A stretch of 64,000 bases of DNA from Candidatus Latescibacterota bacterium (GTDB lineage: Bacteria > Krumholzibacteriota > Krumholzibacteriia > WVZY01): positions 1 to 64,000 of the forward strand of contig CAWBQK010000005.1 of assembly GCA_963791045.1 (NCBI GenBank), given 5' to 3'. Below, in pieces: positions 2,458 to 53,920 of this stretch. A program made the translations under genes and the position numbers. The notes beneath the pieces were generated by a model that was not told where the DNA came from, did not search any database, and saw only the letters and a list, made by a program, of their open reading frames with translations. Every line of letters begins with the position of its first letter. The first letter of the stretch is position 1.

Positions 2458-2571
2458 ATTTTGGATTGTGGATTTCGGATTGTGGATTTGTTGTATCGCT
2501 GCGCTCTATCTGTTTTTATTAAATTGACAGAATACCTTAAATCCAAAATCTAAATTCCCATATCCCAAATC
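2458..2571. repeat. Intergenic inverted repeat built from degenerate heptamers
   Basis: GGATTGT-GGATTTC-GGATTGT-GGATTTG on the left and AAATCCA-AAATCTA-AATTCCC-ATATCCC-AAATC on the right, between convergent genes. Confidence 0.55.
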
Positions 2572-2681
2572 TATGAGGAATAAAAGTGAGATCAATTGTT
2601 AAAAGAAACATTGCGATAGAACGTATGATTTTCACCACCATAGGCTGAATCTGTGAACGCTTACAATTCCAAGACGCCGAA

Positions 2682-2903
2682 TTACGGGGCTTTATAGATA
2701 GCCCGCATGGTCTCAATCTCCGATCGGATCGAGTCCTGCAGCGATTTAGGTGCCAGCACCTTAGCCTTTGCGCCCCACTTCAATACCCAGAATTCAATCT
2801 CCTTGGTGCCGGCCACTTCTGCTTCAAAAATGATGGAACCATCTTTTTGCGTCTCAAATTTCTGAGTGTCATGCCAGGTCTTTTCCCGGATGTATTCGGC
2901 ATA
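2682..2903 (-). pseudogene. C-terminal (WCX) fragment of a WYL-domain transcriptional regulator
   Basis: YAEYIREKTWHDTQKFETQKDGSIIFEAEVAGTKEIEFWVLKWGAKAKVLAPKSLQDSIRSEI fits the end of WYL/PafC-type proteins. The HTH and WYL parts are missing. Confidence 0.75.
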
Positions 2904-4213
2904 CCCGTGCCGATTGCGCATCCATGGGAACCCGCCAAAGTAGGGGCATAACGAATCGTTACCGTCTTCATCTGGCCATTAGTGAGAGCATATCCCCCTC
3001 CACCCGATACGATACTATAATGATCGCAGATTTCACTCACATCCCCCGATAGCGTGCCTCCCCCAGTGTTGGTTATTGTAAAGGTGGTATCTTTATAAGT
3101 CCCCGCAACAACGGTTCCAAAATCAATATTAGAGAGACTCATGTCACATTCGGGGGGATCATCCCCTACACCCGAGCATGATACATTCGCACATTCTGCC
3201 CCTGTTTCTATCGTGCAATCGTGTGTTCCACTTACTGTCGGTTCGAAGCGGACAGAAACAATCACAGATTGATTGAATGCAAGACTGTAATAACCCCCTC
3301 CTGACACGATGCGGTAGTGATCGCATGTTTCTTCAACAGATCCAGAGAGAAGACTCTCTCCCGTATTGGTAATGGTGAAATCCAAATCTGATGTATTCCC
3401 GATCGTGATGTTGCCAAAATCGAGCGTTGACTTGCTCACCAGGCAACTTGGCGGGGATTCCGCGACTCCCGTACACGACACATTGACACATTCTGTCCCC
3501 GTTTCGATCGTGCAGTTCTGGGTGCCGCTCGCGGTAGGTTGATATCTCACCGTGACGGTTAAAAACTGCCCGGTGGTGAGAGCGAATGGACCCGCTCCAG
3601 CAAAAATGTCGAAATGAGAGCAGGTCTCACTGACGTTTCCGTGCAATGTCTCTTCTCCGACATTAGTAATTGTAAAAGTCGTGTCTTTATATGCTCCAAC
3701 CGTCAGAGCACCGAAATCAAGGCTGGTTAAACTAAGTTGGCATTCTGGAGGGTTGATGCAAATTCCCGTCATTGAAATATCCGCGCACTCCGTACCTGTG
3801 GAGATCGTACAACTCAACGTACCACTCACAGTCGGAGAAAAACGCACGGTTGCGGTTACCGATTGATCGGCAGTTAGATCAAAATTTCCACCCCCTCCCG
3901 AAACGATATTAAAATACGAGCACGTCTCGCTAAAACTCCCGATCACCCTTCCTTCTCCAGTATTAGTAACAGTAAACGTTGTGTCTTTAAACTCACCAAC
4001 GGTAAGAGTCCCGAAGTCAATAGCCTCAGGTACGATGAGACATTTCGGATCCTTGATTTGAACTGGATTATCTTTTGAGCAAACTGTCAGAAGGCAAATC
4101 AAAAGCAGAAGTGGGATGAGAAGTGGTAGCCTTGAAACTCGGAGATATTTCAGCACTGCTGCCCCCCCAAGAATATATTTCGTTCGAAATAGAAACGGCT
4201 CGATCATTACCAT
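2903..4213 (-). CDS. Secreted protein with four Cys-rich Ig-like (ASH / choice-of-anchor D type) repeats; 3' end broken at ~2903
   Basis: Hydrophobic N-terminal stretch, then four ~100-aa repeats (C-x6-DFG..VG..KDTTFTITNTG...SETC.H..I.SGGG...VRF.PT.SG...CTI.TG). The repeat pattern stops after GCAIGTG, and the ORF tail to 2780 is an off-frame reading of the WYL fragment. Confidence 0.8.
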
Positions 4214-4510
4214 TTATTCATAATCGAGCATAGAGCACCGGCATTCAAATTCTATACAGCAAAAACAGGATAGGTCAATCACGAGTGCTCAATCATCCGT
4301 AATGCAATACTTAACAGACCTAACTATATATGTCAACGAAAATTAGCATTATGAGCCTTTGCCTATCCTCAATCTTGTTCTCTAAAAGTAAACTCGCTAG
4401 AATTAGATAGCGGACGATGTCGTCATTTAAGTGAATGGGGGATTCTTGTGTTAACCGAGAATTTCACAGGCACACCTGCAGGTATCAACATTCTGTAGTG
4501 TTGATGGCGA

Positions 4511-4570
4511 GTTCTCTGTTTTTTGGGAGAGCCGAATTGAGCGAAATAGGCGCTTTTGTGTTAACCGAGA
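4511..4570 (+). repeat. 60-bp repeat, copy 1 (cassette left-end segment)
   Basis: 54/60 identical, ungapped, to 9169-9228. Ends in TTGTGTTAACCGAGA. Confidence 0.9.
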
Positions 4571-4705
4571 ACATCGCGTGGCTGCTTGGGTCGTCCGCGT
4601 CCGCCTTTATTAGTGAGGGAGGTGGAATCTTTGATGGGGCGGGCTCTGTTTAAGCGCGATCGAGTTTTCGGACACTACGGGGTATCGGTTCCCCACTATA
4701 TTAAA

Positions 4706-4752
4706 CTGGCCCCCCAGATGATACCCTAAAACGAACCTGTCTCACTTTTTTT
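4706..4752 (+). repeat. att-like 47-bp direct repeat, copy 1
   Basis: CTGGCCCCCCAGATGATACCCTAAAACGAACCTGTCTCACTTTTTTT, 46/47 identical to 7315-7361. It begins like the reverse complement of the tRNA-Asn 3' end (TGGCTCCCC). Confidence 0.9.
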
Positions 4753-4780
4753 TGGTCTGCTCCATGAAACACTCCTTTCC

Positions 4781-4796
4781 TGGTATAATTATACCA
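4781..4796. promoter_or_regulatory. Perfect 16-bp palindrome with an extended -10 (TGnTATAAT) on both strands
   Basis: TGGTATAATTATACCA, flanked by a further ACACTCC/GGAGTGT inverted pair (4769-4775 and 4798-4804). Confidence 0.5.
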
Positions 4797-4987
4797 TGGA
4801 GTGTCCTTCAACTTTTTGCTTGATTCTGTCCTAGAGGTGTTGACGCCAAACAATAAACTCAATTATAGCCTAGAAAGTGTCTTGTAAACTGGGGGAAGTC
4901 CAGAGTAAAATCAGTATGTGAGCCGGGGAAGGGAGTAAATTTTATACATTTCTTTTTCCTCCCTATCTTAATTAAAAGGAGGCCGCT

Positions 4988-7033
4988 GTGGATCTTATAA
5001 AAGGGAAATATTCATGGCTACTATTGTTTACATCAATTCTATTCCTTTTGATTATCACCAGTAATACGCATGCGATGGACATTGAAATTAGGAGCATTAG
5101 CAACGCTAACCTCATCGTGGCTGAAGGAGAGGAGCCTGTTGAAATCGTTCTCGCCGGTGAGGGTCTGGATCAAATCACTTTGATTGAACCTTTTATTGGC
5201 GATGAACTCGTCGAGGATTTCGAGATTACCAAAGGAGAATTTTCCGGAAATCAACTCACCCTCATATTAAAAGCAGGGCCCAGCACCACTTATGGTTGTT
5301 GCCTTACTCTCAAACTTAAAATTGGAGAAGACACGGTTGAACTCTACACTCCTCTCGCCCTCGCCGGTGCCGTACCCGCAATTATCGAAAGAGGATCGAC
5401 ACTTAAAACAGGTCAGAAACCAAGCAGTTACAGACCGCCTCCCCCTCCTCCTCCCGCCCCATGCAAGATCGTCTCTTTTCTAATCAACAAGGGTGCTGCG
5501 AAAACAAAGACCAGAACGGTTACGCTCAATAACTCTGCTCCAGGCGCAACTCGTTATCGAGCAAGCGAGCTCTCATCATTCAATGGTGTGCGCTGGTCGA
5601 CCTATAGCAGCGCCCCCCAATTCCTGTTGAGCGATGGGTTGGGGACCAAAACAGTATACTTCCAAGTATATTGTTCCAGCGGCGCTTCCACCGTATTTTC
5701 CGATAGAATCACCTATGACAATCTTCCGGAGCAGGAAACTGAAAGAGTTATGATGTACGATGTCTGGGAGACGGGTACTAATCGCTTAGAGCTATTTTGC
5801 AAGGAGGCTTCTCAGGAATTTATTGCAACAGGAGAATACCTTGAAGAAGTATATTTAGACTTTACTACTTCAGGGAGTGAATATCAGCATACAGTCTTTG
5901 TCGAACTACAAAAGTATATCTCTGGAGATCCAGATAAATCCGATTCCTGGCAGACTCTTAAACAGATAAGGAAGAATACTAACGGACTACTCCCTCCCAT
6001 CGCTTTCCAGTTTGATCCTGCTTTCCGGTTAACAGTCGGAAATATTTACAGAATTCAGCTCAAGATGTCTCGAAAAAACAATATCGGAGTAACGGCTTCC
6101 AGTGATGCATACTTATACAATCAGGCACCTCGAAATTACGACTTGAATATGCGCGTAAAGGGACGCCGCATAAATCGTGCTCCAGCACCTGCACGTCCTA
6201 CTAAAACCGCTCTTATTGTTGTACTAGAAAATGGCGGTGTTGGGTTGGATAGCATTCCAGTTTTAAATAATCTTCCTCCCGCTATTCCCACGTTTCGATG
6301 CGGAAGTTGGGAATTTCCCAGGAAAGAAAACGAGAATACCCTGCAATTTCTCGCCAGATTGTGGGGAATGTTGAGTGAAAATGCATACTGTCTTCAGCCC
6401 TGGGAGTGGCAGCCATATATCCTCATCACATCGGACTGGTGGCAGAAAATATCGGACAAATTATTAGAAGATGTGAGTGAGGCAGTTCGCATGGCGGTGG
6501 ATGGCGGCACTCCATACACATATGACAAAGTACAAGTTCTCCGGGACAGTGATGCGAATCCGAGCCGTCTAATATCCACTCTCGCCAATCTCTCGAGAAG
6601 CTACATAATTGATATCCATGTTTTAACTCACGGAGGGGAGAAGACTATTTGCGGTAAAGAACATATTACCGTTCCAAACTTTTTTATCCCCATGAAACAA
6701 CGTATTGTCAGGGATGAAATGTATCTTAACCTTAGGGCTGTATACCAGATGAACTGCAAGAGCGGCACACTCGTGCCGGATTGGCGCGGATTGGGAGCAG
6801 AAGTAGTTAATGGGACTTTTCAGGAATACAACAACTACATGCCTTCTCAGTACTACCATTTCATGATTCACTGGTTGAATAACGAGACTTTCGATGAAGC
6901 AACTTCGAAAAGTTATGAGGACGCAAGACCATACTTTGAGGCAATTTGGGCCGAAGAACCGGATAATGTAATTATGAGCAAGCTGTTTGTCACCGGAACC
7001 GGAACTGTGAAAATGACAACCCGGACAAAGTGA
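4988..7033 (+). CDS. Secreted multidomain hypothetical protein (Pro linker, Ig-like module, possible clan CD protease-like C-terminal domain)
   Basis: 681-aa ORF with AAGGAGG RBS before GTG, signal peptide ending THA, RPPPPPPPAP linker, and C-terminal IDIHVLTHGG...LRAVYQMNC. Confidence 0.8.
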   Translation: MDLIKGKYSWLLLFTSILFLLIITSNTHAMDIEIRSISNANLIVAEGEEPVEIVLAGEGLDQITLIEPFIGDELVEDFEITKGEFSGNQLTLILKAGPSTTYGCCLTLKLKIGEDTVELYTPLALAGAVPAIIERGSTLKTGQKPSSYRPPPPPPPAPCKIVSFLINKGAAKTKTRTVTLNNSAPGATRYRASELSSFNGVRWSTYSSAPQFLLSDGLGTKTVYFQVYCSSGASTVFSDRITYDNLPEQETERVMMYDVWETGTNRLELFCKEASQEFIATGEYLEEVYLDFTTSGSEYQHTVFVELQKYISGDPDKSDSWQTLKQIRKNTNGLLPPIAFQFDPAFRLTVGNIYRIQLKMSRKNNIGVTASSDAYLYNQAPRNYDLNMRVKGRRINRAPAPARPTKTALIVVLENGGVGLDSIPVLNNLPPAIPTFRCGSWEFPRKENENTLQFLARLWGMLSENAYCLQPWEWQPYILITSDWWQKISDKLLEDVSEAVRMAVDGGTPYTYDKVQVLRDSDANPSRLISTLANLSRSYIIDIHVLTHGGEKTICGKEHITVPNFFIPMKQRIVRDEMYLNLRAVYQMNCKSGTLVPDWRGLGAEVVNGTFQEYNNYMPSQYYHFMIHWLNNETFDEATSKSYEDARPYFEAIWAEEPDNVIMSKLFVTGTGTVKMTTRTK

Positions 7034-7090
7034 TTACCGTAACATTTCAAGTAGAAACGGTGGCAGGTCAACCGAGCCTTTGGTTGGCTA

Positions 7091-7142
7091 GTTGTGTTAA
7101 CCAAATCTTTGCTCTCAGCTGCAAATCTGAGAGTATGAGAGC
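7091..7142 (+). repeat. Cassette right-end segment homologous to 13441-13492
   Basis: TTGTGTTAACCAAATC is identical and AATCTGA and TGAGAGC fall in register (34/52 ungapped). Both copies lie ~230 bp left of an att-like core. Confidence 0.75.
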
Positions 7143-7240
7143 ATTCCGGGCTATTAATCGGTCCCCGGTCGACACCCAGATTCTAACCTGAGAACACACC
7201 AATCCTTTACCCCCACAAATCCCTTATCCCTTACACATAT

Positions 7241-7278
7241 ACAGAAGCCCTGCTCTCGACTGAGAGCAGGGCTTCTGT
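7241..7278. terminator. Perfect 17-bp stem hairpin, probable terminator
   Basis: ACAGAAGCCCTGCTCTC-GACT-GAGAGCAGGGCTTCTGT between convergent genes. Confidence 0.75.
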
Positions 7279-7314
7279 TAACCGGTGGAGCGCCAGGTTC
7301 GCTTTTACATAATT

Positions 7315-7361
7315 CTGGCTCCCCAGATGATACCCTAAAACGAACCTGTCTCACTTTTTTT
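7315..7361 (+). repeat. att-like 47-bp direct repeat, copy 2
   Basis: 46/47 identical to 4706-4752. Its TGGCTCCCC matches 13673-13681 exactly. Confidence 0.9.
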
Positions 7362-7535
7362 AAGGTTTATCGGATTCAACTAAGTGCAATAATAACAGCT
7401 CGGATGGAATTAACGGGAGGGACAGGCAAAGCTCTTCGATAATAGAATGTTGCATTGAGCATATCGAACGAATCTCGGCCCAGATAATATGGCGCAACGC
7501 CTACTCGGAAATCTGCCCGATCGGCTGAGGCATAA

Positions 7536-9056
7536 CTAACGTAACCGCTTGGAATCATATTTGCTAACAGGGCGCCATTTTAGGGACAACCAGTAATTGG
7601 CAGAGCTTGCAGCTTCAAACCACCAATGAACCTTGATGGTGCTGCCAACGACAATATCATCAGGCTGTGAAACGATCTCTGCGCTTCCATTCCCGCGCGC
7701 TTTGACTCTGAGCAGGGTTATTCTTTCGGGAACCCACAGTTTTCGCCATGGGACACCATAAGGATGATCGTCCGTCACTATCCAACTATCTTTCACGGTC
7801 CAATAGTCATCTCCTTTGTCGCCGATTACACCCCAGTGACTCTTACCCAGGTTGGGGTGTGTAGACCCAAGGGGAGGCCGTTCGACGTTAAGATTACGCC
7901 GGTCTTTTTGGAGAGTGAAGGTTACCCAGTTCGTGGATTGACCATTGATAACCAGCTTGATTCTGGTCTGAATTTGAGTTCGGCCCTTCCACTTTAATTT
8001 CGGGTAGATATCTCCCGGGTGATGAAGGGTGATTGTATTCGTCGGGCAACACGTGCCCATTTCTTTAACTTTTAAATCCTCAGCGGCATATTTGAAATCC
8101 CCATAATCAACGATGATCTCGTAATCATCAGCTGTTACAATGTCCTTCGCCATCGCATTAGAAAGGTCCAATACAATGGCCTCTCCAGGATAACCCGATG
8201 TCGGACTGATTCGATCGATATGGGTTGGTTTGTCGATAAAAATAGTTCTGAGAACCAGGGATGAGACGCCGTCGCGCCCTTTCACCTGAAGGTATATGTA
8301 ATGCAGTCCCTCTTCGTCCTTGAGAGTAAAGGAAATCTCGTTTGTACCGCTGGCAAGTCTTGCCCAGGAACTGTACACGTCTTTGTTCTTTGTACGATAG
8401 TAATCAGCGTTCGAAGCCGAAAACTGAAGAGTCACCACAGGTCTGGAAGCTACTTCGCGGCCTCTGTTGATCGTGAAGGAGGTGATGCGTGGGGGTGATT
8501 TCACAAACCTTGAACCCCTGGTTTGGATTTGACTGGAAAGGTCCTGATACAAGGCGGGTTGTTCTCCACGCGGCCAAACACCGGTGTAGGAACCAAGCGC
8601 CTCCAGGCCCTTTCCATCCGACAAGAACAGGAATAGACAGGGAATGCCGTCGTCATTTTCGAAGAATAGTGGCGTAGGAACCTGAATGTCTTTGTCGTGA
8701 TTGAAGGATTTTGCCTTAACGAGACCCAGGGTATCGGGTTCGCCTACGATGTGCAACTGGTTTTTATCCTGGCTGTTTAACCAGTAGACTCCAGGTTGAA
8801 TCAATACGTCCCAACCATCTACGCCCTGGAAATGCACCTCTTTTTCGATCCAAAAGCGGCGAATCTCTGACTTGCCGGGCTCCCCTTCCTGGGCATGGGA
8901 TAAATCCCATACAATTCCCGGAACAAATATCAAAGCAAGGAGAAGAACAATGATGCCATAACCATTGCCTTGTCGGATCCGGGAAAAGGTACTCCATCTC
9001 GTTCTGCGATTGGAATTCATCATTACCCCCCATTGATTATTGCCAATTGTGAACAA
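7536..9056 (-). CDS. Secreted or membrane-anchored hypothetical protein with Ig-like modules
   Basis: 506-aa ORF with a hydrophobic segment ending SHA. Module ITSFTINRG...VVTL...W...FTL...G...IYLQV is followed by an IPT/TIG-like PTHIDRISPTSGYPG. Start codon uncertain. Confidence 0.78.
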   Translation of the reverse strand: MFTIGNNQWGVMMNSNRRTRWSTFSRIRQGNGYGIIVLLLALIFVPGIVWDLSHAQEGEPGKSEIRRFWIEKEVHFQGVDGWDVLIQPGVYWLNSQDKNQLHIVGEPDTLGLVKAKSFNHDKDIQVPTPLFFENDDGIPCLFLFLSDGKGLEALGSYTGVWPRGEQPALYQDLSSQIQTRGSRFVKSPPRITSFTINRGREVASRPVVTLQFSASNADYYRTKNKDVYSSWARLASGTNEISFTLKDEEGLHYIYLQVKGRDGVSSLVLRTIFIDKPTHIDRISPTSGYPGEAIVLDLSNAMAKDIVTADDYEIIVDYGDFKYAAEDLKVKEMGTCCPTNTITLHHPGDIYPKLKWKGRTQIQTRIKLVINGQSTNWVTFTLQKDRRNLNVERPPLGSTHPNLGKSHWGVIGDKGDDYWTVKDSWIVTDDHPYGVPWRKLWVPERITLLRVKARGNGSAEIVSQPDDIVVGSTIKVHWWFEAASSANYWLSLKWRPVSKYDSKRLR

Positions 9057-9137
9057 CTCCGGCTAGCTCTCCTTCGTGGATAGCAGAATCACGAATTTCC
9101 CTACTCTAATCAACTGATACAAAATGTGTCAATAAGA

Positions 9138-9168
9138 TTGGCTCTCCGGTCGTAACCCTCTTCGGAAT
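9138..9168 (+). repeat. attL-like junction of the tRNA-proximal unit
   Basis: TTGGCTC core (9138-9144) equals 13672-13678. GTAACCCTCTTCGGAAT (9152-9168) is the exact reverse complement of 13647-13663. Confidence 0.85.
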
Positions 9169-9228
9169 GTTCTCTCTTTTTTGGAAGGGCCGAATTGAGC
9201 AAAATGGGCGGTTTTGTGTTAACCGAGA
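9169..9228 (+). repeat. 60-bp repeat, copy 2
   Basis: 54/60 identical to 4511-4570. Directly follows the att arm. Confidence 0.9.
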
Positions 9229-9361
9229 GCAGTCAGCCTGATCTCTGACCCTCGTTTGACTCGCTACTATATATTTTATGCGAAAGACATTTCGACGTCC
9301 GGAGTTTGGCTTGGTGAGAGTCGACACACTTTCTCTTATCACCCAATTCAGGAGTTTTATC

Positions 9362-10786
9362 ATGAAACGCCTCAAAAACAAATCTATGACGACCGTATTG
9401 GTGTCGGTCGTCCTTTTCCTGGCAATAGCCCTCGTGGCAGGCTGCAGCAATGACGACGACATCACCGAACCCACGACGGTTAATGACACCGTGGACGATG
9501 CCGATTTCGAGGTCACCGACTGGACCAGCGCCACCCACAGCAAGGCCGCGGACCCGAATTTCGACGAGGTGTTCGAGGACAATACCGTCAAGAGAATCGA
9601 CTTCGTCATCACCGCTGAACGCTGGCAGACCATGCTGGACGACATGACGGATCTGTACGGGACCTTCGGGACCGGCGGCGGGCATGCCGCTCGATTTCGA
9701 CGAGGATCCGGTTTTCGTCCCGGCCGAGGTGTTCTACAACGGTATCGAGTGGTATCGGGTCGGTGTGCGCTTCAAGGGAAACTCCAGCCTGGTGTCAACC
9801 TGGCAGAGCGGAATCCTCAAGCTGGCCTTCAAGCTGGATTTCGACGAATTCGAGGATACTTACCCGCAGATCGACAATCAGCGGTTCTACGGCTTCAAGA
9901 AACTGAGCCTCAAGAACAACTATCGACGACCAATCCATGCTGCGAGAAAAAGTCGCCGGTGACGTCTTCCGCAACGCCGGGTTGGCCGGATCCCATACGG
10001 CGTTCTACACCCTCTATGTCGACTATGGAGAGGGCCCCGTCTATTTCGGCGTCTATACCATGGTCGAAGAAGTCGATGACACCGTCCTGGAAACCCAATT
10101 TGCGGATGACGACGGCAACCTGTACAAGCCGGATGGCGACGGCGCTTCCTTCGTCCGAGGGGACATTCAGTGAAGACGTCTTCGTGAAGAAGACCAACGA
10201 GGATGATTCCGACTGGTCGGACATCCAGGCCCTGTTCGACGCCCTGCACGACGACACCCGCACCCAGGATCCCGCGACCTGGCGCGCCAGCCTGGATGCT
10301 GTCTTTGATACCGAGGCCTTTCTCGAGTATCTGGCGGTCAATACCGTCATCCAGAACTGGGACACCTACGGGCAAATGACCCACAACTACTACCTCTACA
10401 ACAATCCTGACACCGGCAAGATGACCTGGATCAACTGGGACAACAACGAAGCCCTTCAGGAGGGAAAGGGCGGGGGATCCCTGGCCCTTGATTTCTCGGA
10501 TCTGGAAAGCGGTCGGTGGCCCCTGATCGAATACCTGTACGCGGACGACGTCTATCGGTCCCGATACGACGCTTATGTGGCAGAGATCATCGTTGGCGCT
10601 TTCAATACGAGTACGATCCAGGCCACGTATGCCGCCTATGCATCGCTGATAGAACCGTATGCCACCACGGAGATCGCCGGGTATACCTTTCTGCACGGAA
10701 GCGGAGATTTTCGGATGGCCATTTCGGAGCTGAACCTACACGCTTCCCAAAGAGCCTCGGCCGTCGGCACCTACCTGGATCAGTGA
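9362..10786 (+). CDS. CotH kinase family lipoprotein (apparent frameshifts near 9685, 9925 and 10155)
   Basis: Lipobox LVAGC. Motifs spread across frames: VGVRFKGNSS, FKLDFDEF, LSLKNNY, MLREKVAGDVF, GVYTMVEEVD, GNLYKP, NWDTYG..HNYYLY, WINWDNNEA. Confidence 0.85.
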   Translation: MKRLKNKSMTTVLVSVVLFLAIALVAGCSNDDDITEPTTVNDTVDDADFEVTDWTSATHSKAADPNFDEVFEDNTVKRIDFVITAERWQTMLDDMTDLYGTFGTGGGHAARFRRGSGFRPGRGVLQRYRVVSGRCALQGKLQPGVNLAERNPQAGLQAGFRRIRGYLPADRQSAVLRLQETEPQEQLSTTNPCCEKKSPVTSSATPGWPDPIRRSTPSMSTMERAPSISASIPWSKKSMTPSWKPNLRMTTATCTSRMATALPSSEGTFSEDVFVKKTNEDDSDWSDIQALFDALHDDTRTQDPATWRASLDAVFDTEAFLEYLAVNTVIQNWDTYGQMTHNYYLYNNPDTGKMTWINWDNNEALQEGKGGGSLALDFSDLESGRWPLIEYLYADDVYRSRYDAYVAEIIVGAFNTSTIQATYAAYASLIEPYATTEIAGYTFLHGSGDFRMAISELNLHASQRASAVGTYLDQ

Positions 10787-10806
10787 GAGCATGCATCATG
10801 AGAACG

Positions 10807-10833
10807 GCGCCCCTTCCTTTTCCGAAGGGGCGC
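10807..10833. terminator. Hairpin after cotH
   Basis: GCGCCCCTTC-7nt-GAAGGGGCGC between convergent genes. Confidence 0.6.
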
Positions 10834-10920
10834 TGTCCGCGGGCATCAGGCATCACTGTCCCTTACAAAAATATCATCCGCCTAGCCACATTTATTGTTG
10901 GCCGGATGGCCTTTTTGGGA

Positions 10921-11025
10921 GGGACACCGGCTCAGCTTCGTGTTTTCGGCCTTTTAGACCACTACCATCTTCCCGCCACCGATTTTTTCGAGAATCTTGT
11001 AGTGGAATATGGTTCGGCCGATCAT
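10921..11025 (-). pseudogene. Degenerate N-terminal remnant of a second Ser/Thr kinase
   Basis: Reads [32 protein letters not shown], matching the neighbour's [33 protein letters not shown]. Its ATG overlaps the neighbour's TGA. Confidence 0.8.
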
Positions 11026-13265
11026 TTGTCTAATCCGATCTTTTTCACCAACGACTGGAAACGCATATTTGACCTAAGACAATCGAAAAAAGGGAACGTG
11101 TTTGAGAATATATTGACCGGAGCCCTGTCTTCGATTGACTTTTCCATGTCATCCAACGCTTCATCAAATTCACCCATACCCACTAAGACGATCGCGCGAT
11201 GGATGGTGGAGACGTATCTCGTCCGAGCCAATTCGTCCAGCCTGGCGAGAATCCGCAGTGCATCGTCCTTTAGTCCGGCCCTGCCGTAAGCTCCTCCGAA
11301 ATACCCAAGTGAGTATGCGTGTTCGGCCGCTAATGGTTCTGCTTTTCGAATAATAGCAACCGCATCGTCATACTTTTCTTTATCCACATATGGCATGGTA
11401 ATATAAGTGGTCGCCAATAGAAAATTCGGATCCATTTCCAGCGCTTTTTTATGATTCGCGATGCTCTCATCGTGCCGGCGTGCAAAATAATACGCAATTC
11501 CTACAACGGTGTTTATTATAAGCGAGAGGGGATCGAGCTCCCGTGCTGTCTCGGCTTCCTCAATCGCTTCATCGAAACGTCCCATAGCCCACAGATATAT
11601 GGCATACCACTCGTGTACTGTTGCGTATTGCGGATTGAGTTCGATAGACCGTACGTACAGCCTTTCCGCAGCGGGCCAATTCCAATCATAACAAGTTGTT
11701 GCCCAAGCCAACGAGGCGTAGGCTTCACCCAATGTGTTATCGATGGCCAGTGCGTTTTCCGCTGCTGCTTTAGCTTTCGGGAATGCCTCCGCCGGTGACA
11801 GAAAACCGAAAAACCCCGTGACGTTATAGACGATCGGCAATCCCTACGTGCGCAAGAACATAATCTGGGTCTTTTTCGATCGCCTGCTGGAAAATTCCAA
11901 GGCCATTCTCATGCCGCCCTCGAGCCTGCGATTCCAGAAGTAGAGTCCCTTGAGATAGAGATTATGGGCTTCCTGGTCGGCCGTGTGTCGTTTTACGAGC
12001 GCACTTCTCTCTTCCGCCATAAGCCGAACCTTGAGCTTATTCACAATGTTCAACGAAATTTCATCCTGGATGGCAAAGATATCATCGAGATCCCGGTCAT
12101 ATTTTTCCGACCAGATGTGAAATCCGTCTTCGACGTTTATGAGCTGCGCGGTGATCCGCAGCCGATTGCCCGACTTGCGAATACTTCCCTCGAGCACAGT
12201 TCTTGACCTTGAGTTGTTCCCCGATCTTTTGGATGTCACTGTCCCGATTTTTGAACTGAAACGCCGATGTGCGCGCCGCAACACGCAGACCTTCGAGTTT
12301 GACCAGTGCGTTTATAAGCTCCTCGGCAATCCCTTCACAGAAATAAGCCTGGTCTTGCTGTGAACTCATATCGCTGAAACGGAAGTACCGCTATCGAAGG
12401 CTTGAATCTCTTGTGCGGTTACCTTTCTCTCCCAAAGTCCCAGGCTTCCAGAGCTTTCGGCAAACAACTCCAGGTCTTTCTTCAGTTCTTCGGCACTCTC
12501 GTACCGGTCTCTCGCGCGTTTCGCTAGAGATCTCGTCAATAATCCGTTCGAGCTTTCTTGGCACATCGGAACGGCGGCTTTTTATCGACGGCGGCTCCTC
12601 ATTAACAATGCGATATATTGTTGCCTGTTCGTAGTCGGCCTTGAAGGGCAGTTCGCCCGTTAGCATCTCGTAGAGCACAATCCCCAGTGACCAGATGTCC
12701 GTCCGATAATCACGGGATCCCCTCTTCCCTGTTCGGGGGACATATAAGCCACCGTTCCAACCGTTGTTCCTGATTGAGTGAGCTGCGTTCTGTCCAGACG
12801 ACTTGGCCAAGCCAAAATCCATCACCTTCACCCGACCGGCCGCAGTGAGCATGATGTTGGCAGATTTGATGTCGCGGTGGATGATCCCATTGCTATGAGC
12901 TTCTTGAAGCCCTTCAGCGACTTCGACGGCGATTCAGACGGCTTCATCGAATGGCAATGGGCCTGAATTGATCTTGGCTTTGAGACTTTCTCCTTCGACA
13001 CATTCCATCACAATGAACGATCGGTTCTTCATACTCGGCGATCTCGTGAACGGTGCAAATATTCGGGTGATTCAGAGCGGCCGCGGACTGGGCTTCGTGG
13101 ATAAAACGACGTCTTGTCTTCCTCGGTACCGACAGCTTGAGGTGAAAGGAATTTCAGCGCGACGGTGCGCTTGAGCTTGGTGTCTTCGGCCTTATAGACC
13201 ACACCCATCCCGCCCTCGCCGAGCTTTTCGAGGATCTTGTAGTGAGATACGGTCTGCCCGATCAT
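11022..13265 (-). CDS. Hanks-type Ser/Thr protein kinase with TolB-N-like domain and TPR repeats (multiple apparent frameshifts)
   Basis: [52 protein letters not shown]. Then [24 protein letters not shown] and [18 protein letters not shown]. TPRs in ORF 11022..11840. Confidence 0.88.
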
Positions 13266-13440
13266 TTTACCCTCCAGCAAGTTAGCAACGCGGTGGGCAA
13301 GACAAAAGGTGCGAATCCTAGGAGTGGCCCTGATTATAGCGGAGGGCCGACCGGCTGTACAGGATCAACTCCTTGGGCACCTAACGGATGCGGAGATCTA
13401 GGTTTCCGTGGCCGCTAATAGGTGAGTGCGACGTGGATCG

Positions 13441-13492
13441 TTTGTGTTAACCAAATCGGAAAACAGCTTTCAGAATCTGAAACTTTGAGAGC
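13441..13492 (+). repeat. Cassette right-end segment homologous to 7091-7142
   Basis: See the 7091-7142 entry. GTTAACCAAA (13446-13455) also has an inverted partner TTTGGTTAAC (13538-13547). Confidence 0.75.
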
Positions 13493-13646
13493 GATTTGGC
13501 CGAACTCTTCGCCCTAATTCTGAACAAGGGAAGCCCGTTTGGTTAACGGTCACAAAATCTCCCTACATCTCGTTGACTAGACAAGCTTCTTGCATATTTA
13601 AAAATGTGGAATCCTAGAAATCGAATCCGGCGTTCTGACACGGGAA

Positions 13647-13678
13647 ATTCCGAAGAGGGTTACAAACGAAGTTGGCTC
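13647..13678 (+). repeat. attR-like junction overlapping the tRNA-Asn CCA end
   Basis: ATTCCGAAGAGGGTTAC-AAACGAAG-TTGGCTC. The arm is the reverse complement of 9152-9168. Confidence 0.85.
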
Positions 13679-13747
13679 CCCGGGTAGGACTTGAACCTAC
13701 AACCCTGCGGTTAACAGCCGCATGCTCTACCATTGAGCTACCGAGGA
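13673..13747 (-). tRNA. tRNA-Asn (GTT)
   Basis: 75-nt cloverleaf TCCTCGG...TGCGG-CTGTTAA-CCGCA...GTAGG-TTCAAGT-CCTAC-CCGGGGA-G-CCA. Confidence 0.97.
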
Positions 13748-52429: not shown

Positions 52430-52506
52430 TGGCAGGCCCGGCAGGAATCGAACCTGCAACCCCCGGTTTTGGAGACCGGTGCTCTGCCTAATTGAGCTAC
52501 GGACCT
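52430..52506 (-). tRNA. tRNA-Trp (CCA)
   Basis: AGGTCCG...CCGGT-CTCCAAA-ACCGG...TTCGATT...CGGGCCT-G-CCA. Confidence 0.96.
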
Positions 52507-52625
52507 GCGGATGCTGCCTAACGAGAGCCGATCGTCCCAGCTCCGCAAAAAATGTGTCCACCGTTGTCGGCCTTGCCCTCATCCCGCGAGGCGAAGAGTC
52601 GAGCTCAGCCAACTTTTTCTTCTAC

Positions 52626-53820
<1,195 letters not shown>

Positions 53821-53844
53821 GTGCCTCCCTCCGGAGATTGACGC

Positions 53845-53920
53845 TGGAGCCCTCGACCGGAATCGAACCGGTGACCTTTTGCTTACCATGCAAATGCTCT
53901 ACCGACTGAGCTACGAGGGC
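53845..53920 (-). tRNA. tRNA-Thr (GGT)
   Basis: GCCCTCG...TTTGC-ATGGTAA-GCAAA...CGAGGGC-T-CCA. Confidence 0.96.

Follow-up and report, generated by a model that had tools for sequence, protein, structure and literature searches.

How does a unit of about 4.5 kb that encodes no recombinase come to lie directly against an intact tRNA gene? We addressed this question in a 64,000-nt stretch of DNA (hereafter referred to as the window; positions 1 to 64,000 of contig CAWBQK010000005.1, assembly GCA_963791045.1) from a Candidatus Latescibacterota bacterium, where such a unit occupies positions 9138-13678. An earlier note on this DNA had read it as a recent, precise insertion of a circle carrying cotH and a kinase gene, and had assigned its joined ends to a large serine recombinase. 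We compared the genome of the window (G000; 81% complete) within a set of 208 genomes of its class and found the same two ends in relatives, either fused into one symmetric 56-bp site, joined to tRNA-Asn, or standing alone. On a judgement that we consider evenly balanced, the window holds a non-autonomous integrated unit that resembles a cis-mobilizable element (CIME) and depends on a recombinase acting in trans.

Anatomy of the unit at the tRNA-Asn gene

The unit is bounded by the following features, in which LE denotes the left core-proximal arm with a conserved module of 100-230 nt and RE denotes the right arm with the leader of a kinase gene.

9138-9149, plus strand: left core (TTGGCTC; 11/12 over 12 nt), the junction of the outer flank and LE, where the LE homology of relatives stops exactly
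9139-9273, possibly to about 9331, plus strand: LE module, non-coding, consisting of core, arm, T-run and a GTTAAC-containing stretch
9152-9168, plus strand: left 17-bp arm (P' arm), within the LE module
13290-13646, plus strand: RE leader, conserved, upstream of the kinase gene
13647-13671, plus strand: right 17-bp arm (P arm, 13647-13663) and a conserved 8-nt spacer
13672-13683, plus strand: right core, the 3' terminus of the tRNA
13673-13747, minus strand: tRNA-Asn(GTT), intact

The right arm reads ATTCCGAAGAGGGTTAC, and its exact reverse complement forms the left arm, as read directly from the sequence. Each arm stands 10 bp from the GG of the shared core TTGGCTC, whose two copies (9138-9144 and 13672-13678) are 4,534 bp apart; the arm and core geometry described beforehand is thus real. 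In extended form, the core copies (TTGGCTCTCCGG on the left, TTGGCTCCCCGG on the right) are identical at 11 of 12 positions. The right copy is the 3' end of tRNA-Asn(GTT), comprising CCA, discriminator and acceptor stem, and this tRNA, the sole tRNA-Asn of the assembly, is whole according to both ARAGORN and Rfam (tRNA, 70.3 bits), in agreement with the claim that it was left intact. The inverted repeat continues imperfectly to 25 nt (22/25; 9144-9168 with 13647-13671) and therefore abuts the core. With up to 3 mismatches allowed, the window gave two arm matches, compared with 0.18 expected (0/100 shuffles with at least 2); the assembly as a whole (3.66 Mb, up to 2 mismatches) contained no further copy. 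Further core copies were considered as borders of an island and rejected (8 matches, 6.65 expected), and a promoter and terminator scan reported a terminator-like site at neither arm.

Joined, tRNA-linked and solo ends in relatives

Contiguous RE-core-LE sites were detected at eight loci in six genomes (three loci in G007 and one each in G002, G010, G028, G069 and G076). They align over 56 nt free of gaps with a mean column identity of 84%, and all eight keep the spacing 17/10/GG/10/17. The kinase leader lies on one side of each, and the opposite side is the sequence found after the left arm of the window. These contiguous copies, spaced alike, support the proposal that the window's ends are halves of one symmetric 56-bp site. 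G002:C67 and G069:C15 each have one intact kinase gene with core-LE at one side and RE-core-LE at the other, which is the architecture of the window with less cargo.

The right arm of RE adjoins a whole tRNA-Asn in 3 of the 208 genomes (G000, G063 and G069), each from a different family. A near-copy of this RE-core-tRNA-Asn junction is present in G034, and RE is followed by a 3' tRNA fragment in G002:C48 and G026:C276. Such a sporadic distribution over three families fits repeated joining better than inheritance. In a separate observation, about 170 nt are almost identical between G034:C326 (L050, 2480-2675) and G063:C1 (L044, 1300-1480), non-tRNA sequence included; this near-identity across families could reflect transfer or a mis-binned 2.7-kb contig.

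Solo ends of the form flank-core-LE were found at least 14 times, in G069, G076, G079, G085, G086, G038 and the window itself. Their homology stops exactly at the core, and their outer flanks are unrelated. On contig G076:C1, four core-LE ends in the same orientation lie within 24 kb (about 581-605 kb; L052, L053), with unrelated genes and no RE between them. In some LE copies, an additional arm-like copy lies internally, about 105-130 nt away from the terminal one (L051, 7683/7788; L057, 7907/8014; L047, 1273/1403-1419), and the long form of LE has an inner border similar to the core in inverted orientation. At an orthologous locus in one genus, the core is absent from three genomes, two carry the arm or a whole LE, and in one further genome the core forms the end of a short tRNA-like piece and is accompanied by a tail. 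A pattern scan of the genome contigs matched 27 stretches; four were true copies, all in genomes already in the set, and the rest were chance matches.

All three junction types (RE-core-tRNA, flank-core-LE and RE-core-LE) break within the shared core. Different breakpoints in relatives had been named beforehand as a refutation, and those that we found are the same, at the core.

Conservation of the end modules

The LE module of the window was matched by an nhmmer profile built from the copies of relatives (E = 2.2e-25; long profile, 2e-19). Together with the right arm, the RE leader, which spans about 390 bp between the kinase gene and that arm, shares 67-74% identity with the upstream regions of kinase-TPR paralogues in G007 and G002, and a 401-nt RE query found RE in 11 of the 208 genomes. 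A 16-mer of the arm is exact in G069, G076, G079, G085, G086 and G038, and the full 17-mer in G002 and G026. At least seven other genomes, with coding DNA only about 70% identical to that of the window, carry the 16- or 17-mer exactly, and the identity of the arms therefore indicates constraint and not youth. The insertion had been called recent; with an arm sequence conserved across the class, however, identical arms are uninformative on age. Their constancy would most simply be explained if the arms are kept as a half-site bound by a protein. A derivation of LE from the tRNA body through its GTTAAC motif was considered and dropped as too weak.

The window contains one further copy of LE:

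4509-4598, plus strand: second LE copy, degenerate, with neither arm nor core (nhmmer E = 3.6e-11)

Positions of about 4511-4575 and 9167-9235 are nearly identical, and mean column identity is 71% over the full 347-column LE alignment. This copy lies upstream of an open reading frame (ORF; 4988-7033) of 681 aa for which Pfam gave no match. Its presence suggests that a further and older unit lies distal to the tRNA.

Proposed recombination at the core and its closest rival

The joined sites, the rare tRNA joins and the solo ends, all breaking in the core, together support recombination at this position. For the window itself, with LE to the left, RE to the right and both cores in direct orientation, integration at the core from a circular or tandem form is the most economical explanation of this inside-out order. 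In such a form, RE and LE would meet at the 56-bp symmetric site, whose centre would copy the last 9-13 nt of tRNA-Asn; recombination of this centre with the tRNA 3' end, which is identical to it, would then place the unit downstream of the gene, and the same exchange would regenerate the tRNA. No recombinase was found among the ORFs of 9138-13678, as had been claimed. Since the enzyme is not encoded in the unit, it must act in trans. The data show the anatomy, the occurrence in relatives of joined sites, tRNA-joined ends and solo ends, and a breakpoint that is constant; that there was a circle, which way the event ran and which enzyme acted are the parts of this account that we infer.

Several results weigh against integration from a circle. 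The direct repeat is by itself within chance (a 12-mer with 1 mismatch gave 2 matches, 0.74 expected; 17/100 shuffles with at least 2). In the complete genome G076, at least ten LE ends occur with one RE, which a simple cycle of integration and excision does not predict, and LE ends lie in ordinary intergenic regions far from any tRNA-Asn. The exact circle junction was not found in the sequencing runs searched: eight runs contained at most 0.12 of the words, and the Logan contigs of four of them (X1-X4, 88% likeness) also showed no joint skipping 9145-13678. In X3, a back-joint at depth 2 led from 13680 to 9150 and included 2 extra letters; it is not the exact predicted junction and may come from a relative, resembles a contiguous palindrome, and was counted as evidence neither way. 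An empty site was likewise not found. A search of metagenome contigs for the M49 peptidase gave 52 loci, 4 of them with tRNA-Asn beside the gene: two contigs end at the tRNA, and in the other two the downstream genes are unrelated and an arm is absent when up to 3 mismatches are allowed. Among relatives with tRNA-Asn/M49 synteny, the closest have unrelated flanks. With neither the empty site nor the exact circle junction found, the description of the insertion as precise could not be upheld. On the side of the enzyme, Pfam annotation of about 25 module-bearing loci placed no recombinase in or beside any module, seven inspected tyrosine-integrase loci had neither a true arm nor tRNA-Asn, and we found no autonomous relative, that is, no parent element with the same site and its own recombinase.

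It is possible, with appreciably lower probability, that there was no circle, and that RE and LE are independent, dispersed repeat modules, each with an arm and a tRNA-like core for some separate reason. The 4.5 kb would then be the stretch between an LE copy and a copy of the kinase leader, and the tRNA-Asn joins would have arisen by rare recombination through 9-13 nt of microhomology. The imbalance of LE over RE in G076 and the missing enzyme agree with this explanation, as do the LE copies of G038 and G086, which are old and vertically kept at one locus, and the second LE of the window, which lacks arm and core. However, dispersed repeats leave unexplained why every junction type breaks within the same 9 nt, why the spacing around the central GG is fixed in 8/8 joined sites, and why the inside-out order matches the integration of a circle exactly.

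Candidate recombinases and other readings of the arms

We searched the genome of the window and five arm-bearing relatives for recombinases. The Resolvase domain (PF00239) had no match in G000, nor in G002, G010, G069 and G076 (91-95% complete), and was matched only in G007, by two ORFs whose open frames span 422 and 525 aa. Tyrosine recombinases were present in all six genomes; in G000, the candidates include Phage_integrase-family ORFs at C17:249543, C17:261091 and C21:3-581. Tyrosine integrases usually use 7-13 nt of identity with a tRNA 3' end, and a tyrosine recombinase is the more likely type of enzyme here than a serine recombinase.

The earlier assignment, in which the joined site is the attP of a large serine recombinase cutting at the central GG, accordingly lost its ground with the domain missing in its own genome and in 4 of the 5 arm-bearing relatives, and we consider it unlikely. 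The size of the site and its symmetry about a dinucleotide, kept in all eight joined copies, speak for it together with the two ORFs of G007, but the inner 10 nt of the window's half-sites are asymmetric (5/10 matching), and the shared identity of 7-13 nt exceeds what this class of enzyme needs. The serine-recombinase reading retains its geometric argument alone.

Transposition is a slightly less probable origin again: the unit would be a non-autonomous transposon with imperfect terminal inverted repeats (TIRs) of 25 bp and a target-site duplication of 6-7 bp, moved by a DDE transposase in trans. Its inverted ends do abut a direct repeat, and insertion sequence (IS) copies of the rve type lie 2-4 kb from modules at three loci. 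Against this, the supposed duplication does not vary in sequence among at least 25 junctions in many genomes; it is hence part of the element or of a fixed target, and not a copy of variable targets. TIRs with target duplications elsewhere had also been named beforehand as a refutation, and what we found is a flanking repeat with the same sequence everywhere. No transposase was found in the unit, and the rve-type IS was rejected as the mobiliser, with the inverted ends of the neighbouring copies unrelated to the arms. IS110 was rejected likewise, as IS110-type genes are absent from G002 and G069, both of which bear arms. As a side observation, an IS110-family transposase gene (G007:C56, L016, 238-672) lies 3.2 kb from one joined site, with no such link at the other sites.

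The least probable explanation is that the palindrome is a hairpin or operator in the promoter region between divergent kinase and cargo genes, split in the window by an unrelated rearrangement; the joined form does sit between divergent genes, the arm sequence is strongly conserved, and two of three folded joined sites gave single-strand z-scores of -3.8 and -4.2, but such a rearrangement would need two breaks inside the same 9 nt. The third folded site, G002:C67, had z = -1.09, with 29/200 shuffles as good. Across the eight joined sites, pairing was 81.6% compared with 80.2% after shuffling, and 106 of 500 shuffles were as high, which gives no covariation beyond shuffles. The joined sites of G076 and G007:C59 combine two different arm variants and pair poorly. 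Because of these hybrid arms and of pairing no better than in shuffles, the two halves are separable modules and not an obligate stem, and Rfam gave no match other than the tRNA.

Cargo genes

The cargo is as described in the earlier note, namely a CotH protein and a Ser/Thr kinase with TPR repeats.

9278-10786, plus strand: cotH-family gene, in three frames in the assembly (Pfam CotH, E = 1.9e-35, 1.4e-15 and 0.0031)
10912-11028, minus strand: 39-codon fragment of the N-terminus of a second kinase, with an internal stop (tblastn, 64% over 39 aa)
11022-13325, minus strand: Ser/Thr protein kinase with a TPR C-terminus (Pfam)

Read in one frame, the kinase gene has 9 internal stops, and it changes frame several times; it matches residues 19-780 of an intact kinase of 780 aa in G007:C59 (tblastn). 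The frame switches of cotH coincide with 1-nt differences in related contigs, which is what single-base assembly errors would produce. The window also contains tuf (EF-Tu; 52500-53850, minus strand) broken over three reading frames, and no ORF above about 400 aa between 36 and 50 kb. The broken tuf and this stretch devoid of long ORFs indicate that the assembly holds many single-base indel errors, and apparent pseudogenes anywhere in this genome are therefore untrustworthy. The frameshifts of cotH (three) and of the kinase gene (several) were rejected as a clock of pseudogene decay, given that tuf itself is split over three frames; whether the cargo is live or decayed is not judgeable from an assembly with such indels. 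The 39-codon kinase remnant, which is 79% identical to 13174-13267, is the one part of the cargo that can safely be called a relic. It lies directly downstream of the kinase-TPR gene and is what is left of a tandem kinase array such as those in G007:C59.

Surroundings of the tRNA

The side of tRNA-Asn that faces the M49 peptidase and gamma-glutamyltranspeptidase (GGT) genes is syntenic in relatives, and the 3' side of the tRNA differs in each. Of 9 relatives with tRNA-Asn beside the M49 peptidase gene, 7 have a contig that stops no more than 460 nt from the 3' end of the tRNA (loci with such ends include L019, L020, L021, L058, L059, G001:C73 and G002:C13), which suggests repeats or strain variation at this position. 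In the window, GC content is 0.41-0.50 over 2501-9500, compared with about 0.50-0.64 elsewhere in the first 22 kb, and this region holds genes for Ig-like surface proteins and two ORFs assigned to no Pfam family. Also in this region, the ORF of 506 aa to the left of the unit had no match in the 35 other genomes of the order and is therefore unusable as a flank anchor. Together with the second LE, the low-GC region left of the unit indicates that two blocks of accessory DNA, at least 11 kb in total, lie at the 3' end of tRNA-Asn. Separately, the metagenome contig L062, which has the tRNA-Asn/M49/GGT synteny and no arm, contains the inner half of LE at 692-817 (nhmmer E = 3.5e-14), 2.6 kb downstream of its tRNA-Asn.

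Comparison with known systems and implications

CIMEs are elements that retain attL and attR and have lost their own integration genes (PMC5704250). The window unit resembles them in that its two att-like junctions share a core with the tRNA 3' end, in its lack of a recombinase of its own, and in lying in tandem with more accessory DNA at the same tRNA. In contrast to CIMEs, no parent integrative and conjugative element, integrative and mobilizable element or prophage with the window site was found, the ends belong to a multi-copy family that spans the class and is often solo and far from a tRNA, and the typical cargo of these ends is a single kinase-TPR gene.

Islands integrated at tRNA genes by tyrosine integrases offer a second comparison. 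The identity block of the window (7/7; 11/12) spans the terminal acceptor-stem nucleotides and CCA, the tRNA would be regenerated, and inverted arms flank a 6-7-bp core that resembles an overlap. The window differs in that it has no integrase next to the tRNA, and its perfect arms stand 10 bp from the centre and not beside the overlap. Sublocation classes of tRNA integration sites were reportedly distinguished by Williams in 2002.

IMEX (integrative mobile elements exploiting Xer recombination) and pdif modules are Xer-dependent and borrow their recombinase from elsewhere. The window unit shares with them, and with mobilizable genomic islands (MGIs), a short symmetric site, the absence of a recombinase in cis, and modules that can be shuffled between sites, whereas its target is the end of a tRNA-Asn and not dif or the attB of a helper element. 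MGIs likewise borrow a recombinase encoded elsewhere (PMC5397120).

The attC site of integrons is an imperfect palindrome with exchange in a conserved stem box, and the IntI integrase is found with attI at the head of the array. Here, in contrast, the breakpoint is central between the arms and not in an arm, and there is no integrase at the G076 array of LE ends in the same orientation. Sites of serine integrases have inverted symmetry about a central dinucleotide (PMC5499854, PMC2475636). The joined site shares this symmetry and a length of about 50-56 bp with large serine recombinase attP sites, although such a recombinase is missing in 5 of the 6 arm-bearing genomes. Our literature searches returned these general element classes and no description of a site of this kind.

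If the ends are dispersed repeats that never passed through a circle, the finding amounts to no more than a repeat family, undescribed before, with an end that resembles a tRNA. If the window instead holds a unit integrated by a recombinase in trans, tRNA-Asn would be a docking point for recombinase-less units in this uncultured lineage, and the conserved pair of end modules would be a handle for copying and moving signalling-kinase genes within genomes. This would account for the abundance of kinase-TPR paralogues whose leaders are conserved, and would provide a defined 56-bp site and a defined target for tracing the enzyme. A broader proposal, which we regard as rather doubtful, is a class-wide cassette system in which gene modules, among them kinase-TPR genes and cotH, would be linked and released at a 56-bp symmetric site with the tRNA-Asn 3' end copied in its centre, and would dock at tRNA-Asn, with the recombinase never in the cassette. 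Such a system would be a chromosomal counterpart of module shuffling of the integron and pdif type, with the end of a tRNA as the common currency.

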